Shown here in pieces: positions 1 to 12,559 of a stretch of 18,962 nt of DNA. A program made the translations under genes and the position numbers. Numbering within the stretch: position 1 is the stretch's first letter; each line of letters opens with the position of its first letter. The DNA comes from a virus, in UHGV virus genome UHGV-0190812; one strand, written 5' to 3'. The notes under the pieces were generated by a model. It was given only the letters and a program-made list of their open reading frames with translations. It was not told the origin of the DNA and did no database searches.

Positions 1-61
1 AATATATATTCTAATCACACAGTGGCAGGAGGGGACCTCCTGCCACCTCAGGGTTGTCATA

Positions 62-592
62 ATGAGTTCTGTAATGAAATTTTCTGTTGTTAATGCAGTA
101 GTGCTGCTGTTGCTGATTGTACTTACTGGTGTTTTTTATATGAAAAAGTCAAAAGAAATTGCAGTTGTTAATATCGATACTATTTATAATCAGTCTACCG
201 CCGGAGACATGGCCAGAAAGCATCTGAATGAGGTTAAGAGTATTCTTGAAAAAGGATATGAGGATGCGCAAAAAGCATTCGCAGATAACGCGAATAAAGA
301 GGCGCTGCTTCTTGATGCCAGACAAAAACTGGAACGACAATATGTTATTGAGGAAAATAGCGCAAAAATGGTGTTATCCCGTGCGATAGATAATGCCATA
401 GGCACATGGAGAAAAGACAATCCTAAAAATATTGCCGTATTGTCTTCAGGTGTTGTGCTTGCGCATAACGAGTCAGCTGATATCACCAAAGAAGTCATGA
501 CTCTGGTTGAAAAAGAAAATCTGGTTTTTAATAAATTACCCAAAGTGGAAGTGCACAATAAGAATGAAGAGAAACCAGAACAAAGTAAGTAA
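62..592 (+). CDS. Skp/OmpH-like periplasmic chaperone family protein with N-terminal hydrophobic anchor
   Basis: 176-aa ORF. Hydrophobic N-terminus (VVNAVVLLLLIVLTGVF) followed by segments resembling E. coli Skp as recalled (IAVVNIDTIY vs IAIVNMGSLF; C-terminal AVLSSGVVLAHNESADITKEV vs [23 protein letters not shown]). Similarity judged by eye from memory, not searched. Confidence 0.55.
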   Translation: MSSVMKFSVVNAVVLLLLIVLTGVFYMKKSKEIAVVNIDTIYNQSTAGDMARKHLNEVKSILEKGYEDAQKAFADNANKEALLLDARQKLERQYVIEENSAKMVLSRAIDNAIGTWRKDNPKNIAVLSSGVVLAHNESADITKEVMTLVEKENLVFNKLPKVEVHNKNEEKPEQSK

Positions 593-1117
593 TCACTAGA
601 TTCTGACGATTTCCAGAAGGGAGATTCAGCAGGCCAGCATCTGTAATCATTCAGATTTGCTGGCTTGCTGCTAAATATGGTTGGTAAGAAAAATAGCAGG
701 CCAGTAATTTATTTAGATTACTGAATATAATAATTTTTCAGGAACGGTTATGCTGAAGGTAGTATGTTTAATCGACACAATTATTTGCTGTGTCTAATAT
801 GAGGTGACATTTTTATGATCACTGACCAGCAAGACTGACCCGTATTGATTAGCCTGATTATTGGCAACTTATTGGGGTAGTCATTTTGACATCCAATGGG
901 GGAGGTTTCCAGTTAAGTTCACGAATGCATGATGATTTGCGTTCACATATCGAAGTACTGGTTGACTATACTAAGGATTTTAAGATAACTCACTGATTGT
1001 AACTGGGTTATTGCGAGGGGGATGATAGATGGTGTCCCCTGCAGACATCTACTTGAAGCAGCAGGGGATTGATTGGAATGGTGTTTTTTAGATGTGAGAA
1101 ATATTTTACCCGCTATT

Positions 1118-1318
1118 TTACCCATTGGCGCGGCTTAAGAGCTTATTTTTGAATTCACAATGGTCACGATATAACCATCTTGCTCGCCCGTGGATAACTT
1201 TGGCTTTTGGCAGGTCGCCGGACTTAATCCGGTCATAGATGAAGGTTTTACCAAAGCCAGTATCAGCCATGATGAATTTCAAATCAACCAGTGAATCAGG
1301 CTGTAGTTCGTGTTGCAT
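1118..1318 (-). CDS. AlpA-family small DNA-binding protein (excisionase/regulator-like)
   Basis: 66-aa ORF; DLKFIMADTGFGKTFIYDRIKSGDLPKAKVIHGRARW is typical of the prophage AlpA/Xis-type helix-turn-helix family. GGAGA Shine-Dalgarno 8 nt upstream of the ATG. Confidence 0.7.
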   Translation of the reverse strand: MQHELQPDSLVDLKFIMADTGFGKTFIYDRIKSGDLPKAKVIHGRARWLYRDHCEFKNKLLSRANG

Positions 1319-11939: not shown

Positions 11940-12150
11940 TAAGTGGAGCAGGGTGTTGCCACATTTGCGTCAGGATAGATTGCAATAGTTTTACATATTA
12001 GGCGCTGAATGGATGCAATCAGATAGCGCACTGGGCGGCAATGATTAAGGCTTCAGATAAGCCAAGTAAGCACTGAAAAAGTTCAATGTAATCAAATTCT
12101 CTTTATGGTATTTTCGTTAGACATCTCATACGCTTAGATGGAAATTTGAA

Positions 12151-12351
12151 ATGATGTATTCAGTAACTTTCGATGAAACTGGACGAGTAGAAGATATTGA
12201 ACTAGAGCGTGAGGTTAGAGCCGGAGATAGACTCTCGCTTAATATTGATGGTCTTGATGGTATTTATATAGTCATGACTGTTAGCGGCCCTATCTATGAA
12301 AATGTTTGTGTGCCAATGAATATCCGGGTTCAAAAGTATTGGAAGCAATGA
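12151..12351 (+). CDS. hypothetical small protein (66 aa)
   Basis: ORF within the repeat-flanked cassette, followed directly by a hairpin terminator. Weak Shine-Dalgarno; no family recognised. Confidence 0.3.
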   Translation: MMYSVTFDETGRVEDIELEREVRAGDRLSLNIDGLDGIYIVMTVSGPIYENVCVPMNIRVQKYWKQ

Positions 12352-12356
12352 TGTAT

Positions 12357-12385
12357 AATCCCCTCAGATGATCGAGGGGATTTTT
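12357..12385 (+). terminator. intrinsic terminator hairpin whose 3' arm contains the Shine-Dalgarno of the next ORF
   Basis: ATCCCCTC-AGATGAT-GAGGGGAT stem (8 bp) followed by TTTTT, then the ATG at 12386; the GAGGGGA in the 3' arm is the only Shine-Dalgarno for that ORF. Confidence 0.45.
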
Positions 12386-12559
12386 ATGTCAGATTGGAAC
12401 ATTGCAGCAAAACCGCAAGAGGAACGTGACAATGTTAACTTTGACCTTGCTGCGTCTGGTGTTGCATATAAAGAACGCTCCAAAATTCTCGTCATAGCCG
12501 AAGTGGTGATGTGCCAGCAACCAGAGCATCTTTGTGATTACTTCATGGAGCGCGTCTGA
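12386..12559 (+). CDS. hypothetical small protein (57 aa)
   Basis: ATG at 12386 with GAGGGGA 5 nt upstream; the track ORF starts 18 nt earlier at 12368. No family recognised. Confidence 0.35.
   Translation: MSDWNIAAKPQEERDNVNFDLAASGVAYKERSKILVIAEVVMCQQPEHLCDYFMERV

Follow-up and report, generated by a model that had tools for sequence, protein, structure and literature searches.

Positions 1–1443, the left end of the UHGV virus genome UHGV-0190812 (an 18,962-nt stretch of DNA, referred to as the window), form attR, the right-hand junction of a mosaic lambdoid prophage integrated at the 3′ end of the tRNA-Arg(CCU) gene argW. On the bacterial side, the junction adjoins an accessory island, ipuB-ipuA-ipuR-upaE, located between dsdC and argW, of which the window shows the distal end. 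The gene at 62–592, which encodes an OmpH/Skp-like protein, is an unreported third gene after ipuR-upaE. An argW attR junction of the KplE1/HK620 type, a host flank formed by the upaE island and a putative auxiliary OmpH-like chaperone gene within that flank very probably account together for this end of the window.

The prophage/host boundary at argW

The 16-nt core published for the KplE1 prophage (PMC2951348), CTGCAGGGGACACCAT, is identical in the window, where it has a single exact match against 0.01 expected by chance. Copies of the core were mapped in the K-12 KplE1 (CPS-53) locus and in loci with an empty site. In comparison with K-12, no relation is seen before ~1028, after which identity is 99.76% across 1028–1443. 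MEI003 is 100% identical to window positions 1–1029, and base 1029 is followed by intact argW and yfdC; in Nissle 1917, the same region joins intact argW-yfdC directly. The E. coli comparison set consisted of 5426 complete genomes: an empty-site probe, made of the flank joined to intact argW, was fully covered in 186 of them, and the torI junction was found in 36. Since the core match, the start of K-12 identity and the empty-site junctions agree, the boundary can be placed exactly, and sequence comparison assigns positions 1–1028 to the bacterial chromosome, 1029–1044 to the crossover site and 1045–1443 to phage DNA. One of three readings in a preliminary description of this DNA had the boundary fall within 600–1118 and the Skp-like gene belong to the host; it had also suggested a comparison with empty-site chromosomes. 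Both the position of the core and the 186 genomes in which 1–1029 is fused to intact argW bear this reading out.

The gene adjoining attR inside the prophage, 73 nt from the core and transcribed towards the junction, is torI. Its product has 66/66 residues in common with K-12 TorI and matches the TorI structure (PDB 1z4h, E 6.6e-43) and the phrog_66 excisionase, in agreement with RefSeq annotation. The gene had been described as AlpA-like; it is indeed of the excisionase type, but the match to Pfam AlpA reaches only E 0.12. The phage arm of attR is the same as that of K-12 apart from at most one base. The attR-IHF2 reverse primer, which served to make an attR substrate active in vitro (PMC3509656), maps to 1122–1141, and the window matches the K-12 substrate sequence, with its predicted IntS arm-type and IHF sites, up to that point. 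Within the arm, direct repeats of TATTTTACCC stand at 1102–1111 and 1114–1123. Because this motif recurs in K-12 attL, in the arm-site region upstream of intS, and because all P′ arm sites contain TAAA according to the authors of the KplE1 module work, the repeats are probably IntS arm-type sites of attR.

A lone excisionase is what the module predicts at this end. In the KplE1/HK620/Sf6/CUS-3 sub-family, whose recombination module was described as unusual, int and the gene for the recombination directionality factor are transcribed separately and flank attP; after integration, IntS adjoins attL and argW at the far end, with the intS promoter overlapping attL next to argW, and TorI stands alone by attR, while TorI binds attL and acts with IntS and IHF to drive excision (PMC2951348, PMC3509656). 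K-12 shows intS-argW at the prophage end far from torI and attR, and strain 300033, which has the same left junction at 99.3% identity, carries intS-tRNA-Arg-yfdC 32.5 kb beyond torI. Because the module places IntS at the opposite end of the prophage, the missing integrase is normal, and by analogy with these two strains the integrase of the UHGV-0190812 prophage is expected past the right end of the window. The preliminary description was correct that no integrase adjoins torI in the window, and its suggestion that the integrase lies outside fits the layout in strain 300033, but what it took for an unusual arrangement is the published KplE1/HK620/Sf6 module.

Two other explanations for this end were weighed. 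The prophage could be defective, having lost integrase and attL and kept a lone excisionase: the window lacks an integrase, many argW prophages are degraded, K-12 KplE1 included (PMC2951348), and none of the 5426 complete E. coli genomes matches the window over its full length. The far end of this prophage, where its IntS and attL would be, lies beyond the window. However, a lone torI by attR is the usual state for the KplE1-type module, intS-argW is kept at the other end in K-12 and strain 300033, and the attR core, arm and torI are intact and the same as the recombination-proficient K-12 versions. We consider loss of the integrase improbable, and nothing at this end points to a defective element. 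Far less credible still is an origin of the Skp-like gene as cargo of the prophage (moron or lysogenic conversion), with the true prophage end left of the window. A low GC content (37%), a 97% identical copy of the gene in the GenBank "phage" record GER2 and a 76–80% identical copy accompanied by an autotransporter on P1-like phage-plasmids would suit such an origin, but the att core stands between the OmpH-like gene and the phage DNA, the protein has no significant PHROG match, and the GER2 match to the window goes no further than 1044, in a record that also holds ipuA-ipuR-upaE misannotated as tail fiber. The gene region joins intact argW without a prophage in the 186 empty-site genomes, which already refutes a cargo origin at this locus and makes the gene chromosomal accessory DNA. 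The proposal that it is a candidate for lysogenic conversion accordingly fails, the gene lying outside the prophage and belonging to the upaE island.

GER2 (MG710528.1; L018 2691–13227) is an 88-kb Stx-phage record in which upaE is annotated "long tail fiber proximal subunit". The record is 98.7% identical to the window as far as 1044; beyond this point comes another prophage, whose integrase is located beside the same argW core. Because the match ends at 1044 and the record holds ipuA-ipuR-upaE, GER2 appears to over-extend into the host chromosome. It shows that the argW core site serves another phage type as well, one whose module is laid out differently. A phage-borne Skp-like gene does exist on P1-like phage-plasmids, just not in this window.

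The upaE island on the bacterial side

The identity of the flank was supported by annotation and by a published primer. In RefSeq the gene order is dsdC, ipuB, ipuA, a helix-turn-helix regulator (ipuR), upaE, an OmpH-family gene and the att site, and the published upaE reverse primer (PMC6083910) ends on the sequence at the window start. upaE is a 7.9-kb gene for a phase-variable giant autotransporter adhesin. The island and the upaE 3′ end are the same as in the ipuS-ipuR-upaE locus of CFT073 (Battaglioli et al. 2018, PMC6083910). Window positions 1–1029 were present in 253 of the 5426 genomes, and every listed match adjoins an UpaE or autotransporter annotation. The preliminary description had held that it would be refuted by an integrase directly left of the window together with a Skp-like gene kept as a host core gene. 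Neither applies: upaE adjoins on the left, and the gene is accessory, occurring in ~4.5% of complete E. coli genomes.

K-12 and upaE-positive strains diverge right at the att core (window 1029). K-12 lacks the island, and its 108 bp (L002 12601–12708) correspond in the upaE-positive strains to ~12.2 kb running from ipuB to the spacer (L001 8769–21028); the other breakpoint sits within the last dsdC codons, and the K-12 dsdC 3′ end is slightly different. The island was also considered as an argW-integrated element in its own right and rejected, there being no core repeat flanking the dsdC side: no second argW core was found there in L001 within 3 mismatches.

Between the 3′ structure downstream of the OmpH-like gene and the core, 358 bp of AT-rich sequence form an ordinary host intergenic spacer next to argW. 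Positions 657–1028 are single-copy, chromosomal and unannotated in 233 of the 5426 genomes. No open reading frame (ORF) wholly inside 671–1028 exceeds 36 aa, and the minus strand at 880–1044, downstream of argW, has no significant fold. The region 593–1117 has a GC content of ~37%, and its longest ORF is 60 aa, in line with the earlier statement that 600–1118 holds no substantial ORF; this ORF, at 943–1125 on the minus strand, was rejected as a gene, as it runs across the att junction. Rfam at a permissive setting gave no match in 1–1500, a promoter/terminator scan returned no more sites than in shuffled sequence, and no tRNA genes were found in the whole window. All of the left-end features previously described are present, with small corrections only.

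An OmpH/Skp-like protein beside giant autotransporters

We accept the protein encoded at 62–592 as a member of the OmpH/Skp family at the level of the fold, as profile searches and a predicted model suggest. The protein alone scored 28.6 bits against Pfam PF03938 (OmpH; E 1.9e-6), below the gathering score of 32.4, and PF03938 was matched by 14/14 aligned relatives at E ≤0.01, the best at 1.7e-10. An exhaustive search for relatives returned ~167 clusters, and the top three matches of the relatives' profile in PDB were OmpH structures, though weak (E ~0.02). The AlphaFold model (predicted local distance difference test score 75.5) consists of a helix at residues 9–27, a strand, a long helical hairpin at 38–119 and two more strands, corresponding to the Skp fold of a small beta-sheet body with an alpha-helical hairpin "tentacle". 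Foldseek with the predicted model gave no significant match, and pairwise comparison with E. coli Skp, using an approximate Skp sequence as query, aligned 13 residues without significance (E 0.059). RefSeq versions of 531 nt and 519 nt both exist, starting at 62 and 74, respectively; the start at 62 is favored because the N-terminus MSSVMKF is kept in homologues down to 63% identity.

Because residues 7–27 are hydrophobic with no obvious signal-peptidase site, the N-terminus is probably an uncleaved membrane anchor. The earlier call of a membrane-anchored OmpH/Skp-like gene is thus upheld in its family, by profile and fold, and in its hydrophobic N-terminal helix. The 43% identical relative P0029 has the expected RR..K ahead of the helix.

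The upaE stop codon (TAA, 12–14) and the ATG at 62 are 47 nt apart, and between them sits a hairpin with a predicted RNA folding energy of −21.9 kcal/mol (z −3.9). A perfect 9-bp hairpin had been noted at 24–44; a perfect hairpin is present, but its stem is really 11 bp long, and the earlier description saw the inner 9. It does not belong to the promoter side of a gene standing alone. Across five lineages the folding energy of the conserved hairpin stays between −19 and −23 kcal/mol. The stem is kept with variable loops in four lineages, among them Salmonella diarizonae, Escherichia sp. and the metagenomic contig L010, and the contig L017, whose homologue is 42% identical, has an 11-bp stem of different sequence (−22.5 kcal/mol). 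Compensatory stem changes were judged from individual folds, and MAFFT gave no structure-consistent L017 alignment. Because the stem is kept in L017 with a different sequence, selection on the structure can be argued. The hairpin is absent in the Yersinia copies. It was rejected as an intrinsic terminator, since the stem is followed by CUCAGGGUUGUC with no U-tract and the terminator scan does not report it.

Gene neighborhoods of the relatives were drawn from the contigs encoding them and from a plasmid collection. In S. enterica diarizonae, an invertase, a GerE regulator and a 2632-aa autotransporter are followed, after 48 nt, by a homologue 63% identical. IncY P1-like phage-plasmids of Escherichia carry PapI/PapB-like regulators and a 2641-aa autotransporter, then a homologue 76–80% identical, in the neighborhood of phd/doc, the C1 repressor, terminases and a Cre-like integrase. 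In contig L010 the homologue directly follows a large autotransporter gene, and in the relaxase-bearing contig L017 it follows an autotransporter of at least 1894 aa. Two IncFII plasmids of Yersinia ruckeri hold homologues 30–33% identical, one 24 nt after a gene for a 1675-aa autotransporter (L022) and the other ~1.6 kb downstream of a split SPATE autotransporter (L023). The gap between autotransporter gene and homologue is 24–57 nt in several unrelated settings.

Several details of these loci are recorded here. The IncY P1-like copies are L008 (2028–10543), L019 (NZ_CP127299.1, pAPEC201602; 12013–12543), L009 and L011; these phage-plasmids also hold Lpa and Ref, and the cassette is flanked by PapI/PapB-type regulators and a GerE regulator. 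In both Y. ruckeri plasmids (L022, 6985–7827; L023, 9569–10039 and 865–1272), a SapC-family gene comes after the OmpH-like gene, which suggests a larger conserved accessory set in these plasmids. Distant relatives of ~30% identity in the metagenomic contigs L014 (678–5990) and L015 (3793–9594) are followed by genes for 1770–1933-aa proteins without any Pfam match, possibly large envelope proteins. A profile scan of genome contigs with the alignment of closer relatives confirmed no locus.

From these loci, the gene at 62–592 may be the first member of a subgroup, not described before, of Skp/OmpH paralogues that are anchored in the membrane and each serve one giant type Va autotransporter. Adhesin and private chaperone would form a mobile two-gene cassette, joined by an intercistronic stem-loop of conserved structure in the Escherichia/Salmonella clade, that has moved within Enterobacterales among a phase-variable chromosomal island, P1-like phage-plasmids and plasmids of conjugative type. 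We hold this proposal tentatively, at somewhat less than an even chance. No description of an autotransporter-linked OmpH paralogue was found in the literature, and it is the sole part of this analysis with some novelty.

As for function, the OmpH-like gene would be co-transcribed with upaE from the invertible ipuS promoter, and the 11-bp intercistronic stem-loop may tune relative mRNA stability or read-through. The protein would be tethered at the inner membrane, facing the periplasm, as an auxiliary holdase that keeps the 271-kDa, ESPR-bearing UpaE secretion-competent between Sec and BAM/TAM. Family, neighborhood and conservation give this tethered chaperone mechanism roughly even chances of being right.

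Several observations weigh against this role, which is read from family and gene neighborhood. upaE expressed alone in K-12, without the OmpH-like gene, gives a full-length, surface-exposed protein that mediates adhesion (PMC6083910), so that the OmpH-like protein is at most auxiliary and not essential under overexpression. The same work calls ipuR-upaE a two-gene operon and mentions neither the downstream OmpH-like gene nor the hairpin (PMC6083910). The charges around the N-terminal helix are one K before it and KKSK after it, and because KKSK after the helix argues against a periplasmic domain by the positive-inside rule, the topology is uncertain; by eye, the N-termini of distant relatives resemble lipoprotein or secretory signal peptides. 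Relatives of ~30% identity, one of them from Desulfovibrionaceae, are not linked to autotransporters, and a 43% identical relative has no autotransporter in 826 bp of flank. Part of this evidence would also suit an independent accessory envelope protein that has its own promoter and no specific relation to UpaE, the hairpin terminating the ipuR-upaE operon: the published two-gene operon, the function of upaE alone in K-12, the distant family members unlinked to autotransporters and a strong GC-rich stem right after the upaE stop all point that way. Such independence is nevertheless unlikely. The genes stand just 47 nt apart, no promoter-like plus-strand site was found in 1–61, the hairpin does not have the form of a terminator, and the intergenic upaE/OmpH sequence is more conserved than coding DNA. 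Moreover, the autotransporter/OmpH pair is kept across at least five unrelated regulatory or replicon contexts, down to 30–33% identity.

Features of the junction and related systems

Coordinates of the features described above are collected below.

Features at the left end of the window (positions 1–1443)
Feature	Position	Strand	Description
upaE 3′ end	1–14	+	Last codons Y-I-F, then TAA at 12–14; RefSeq annotation of the identical junction (300033, others)
Intercistronic hairpin	22–46	+	Perfect 11-nt arms 22–32/36–46, 3-nt loop, no U-tract
OmpH/Skp-family gene	62–592	+	176 aa, N-terminal hydrophobic helix; directly 3′ of UpaE-type autotransporter gene
Imperfect inverted repeat in 3′ untranslated region	627–670	+	13-nt arms, 18-nt loop; candidate 3′ end or terminator structure
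AT-rich spacer	671–1028		Chromosomal, non-coding, 37% GC; bacterial arm of attR
attR core CTGCAGGGGACACCAT	1029–1044	−	Last 15 nt of tRNA-Arg(CCU) gene argW + 1 nt; exact prophage/host boundary
Phage arm of attR	1045–1141	−	Same as K-12 arm active in vitro; overlaps torI stop codon
torI	1118–1318	−	Recombination directionality factor (excisionase) of KplE1 module, also TorR inhibitor; 66 aa
Region upstream of torI	1319–1443	−	Still conserved KplE1-type module; K-12 identity runs 1028–1443

Downstream of the OmpH-like gene, the region 590–730 folds at −44.1 kcal/mol (z −4.65). The P1-like plasmid copies resemble the window up to 656, and strain S42, with another chromosomal context, up to 670. 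Because similarity ends at the inverted repeat, the mobile unit would comprise the autotransporter gene, the hairpin, the OmpH-like gene and the 3′ structure. The sequence AGCAGGCCAG occurs twice, at 628–637 and 695–704, 67 nt apart. A second, AT-rich hairpin at 702–723 (CAGTAATTTA/TAGATTACTG), with a T-run a few bases on, lies just outside the plasmid-shared portion and may be where the transcript really ends.

The junction shares with KplE1 (CPS-53) of K-12, whose module is common to HK620, Sf6 and CUS-3, the same core, TorI, the argW 3′ site and the torI-attR layout. It differs from KplE1 in its flank, which is the upaE island in the window and an unrelated dsdC-proximal 108 bp in K-12, and in the rest of the prophage, which is another lambdoid mosaic with bet, replication P, Q and lysis genes. 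The matches indicate that the attR-torI module is recombined onto a different lambdoid early region. A mosaic joint lies at 1377–1443: K-12 KplE1 identity stops at 1443, for other lambdoid prophages, at different integration sites, the match to the window begins only at 1377–1397, and the mosaic junctions fall at ~1388–1443.

E. coli Skp (HlpA/OmpH; 1sg2, 1u2m) is a periplasmic trimeric holdase, and a structure is also available for the OmpH-like CC_1914 (4kqt). Unlike skp, which belongs to the bamA-skp-lpxD cluster, the gene at 62–592 lies in an accessory island by a single client gene, and the N-terminus of its product looks like an uncleaved anchor rather than a cleavable signal peptide. 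A further parallel is offered by accessory factors whose genes adjoin type V secretion genes, such as SadB, an inner-membrane lipoprotein that assists the trimeric autotransporter SadA. Like SadB, the protein would be a small envelope protein whose gene shares an operon with that of a large adhesin and which improves the adhesin's display without being strictly required. It differs from SadB in its OmpH/Skp fold, in a gene that lies downstream rather than upstream, and in a client that is a classical type Va autotransporter.

For the prophage, an excisionase standing alone, no integrase and an AT-rich gap are what a KplE1/HK620-type attR junction at argW ordinarily looks like, which closes a false lead. 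For the host, the UpaE locus is a kidney-colonization factor of uropathogenic E. coli, and its conserved third gene is not discussed in the founding paper. Whether on chromosomes, plasmids or phage-plasmids, the gene for this Skp-like protein accompanies those of large autotransporters. If the protein is a client-specific periplasmic chaperone, it would provide a tractable model for the periplasmic transit of autotransporters of >250 kDa and would matter for the heterologous display of very large adhesins.

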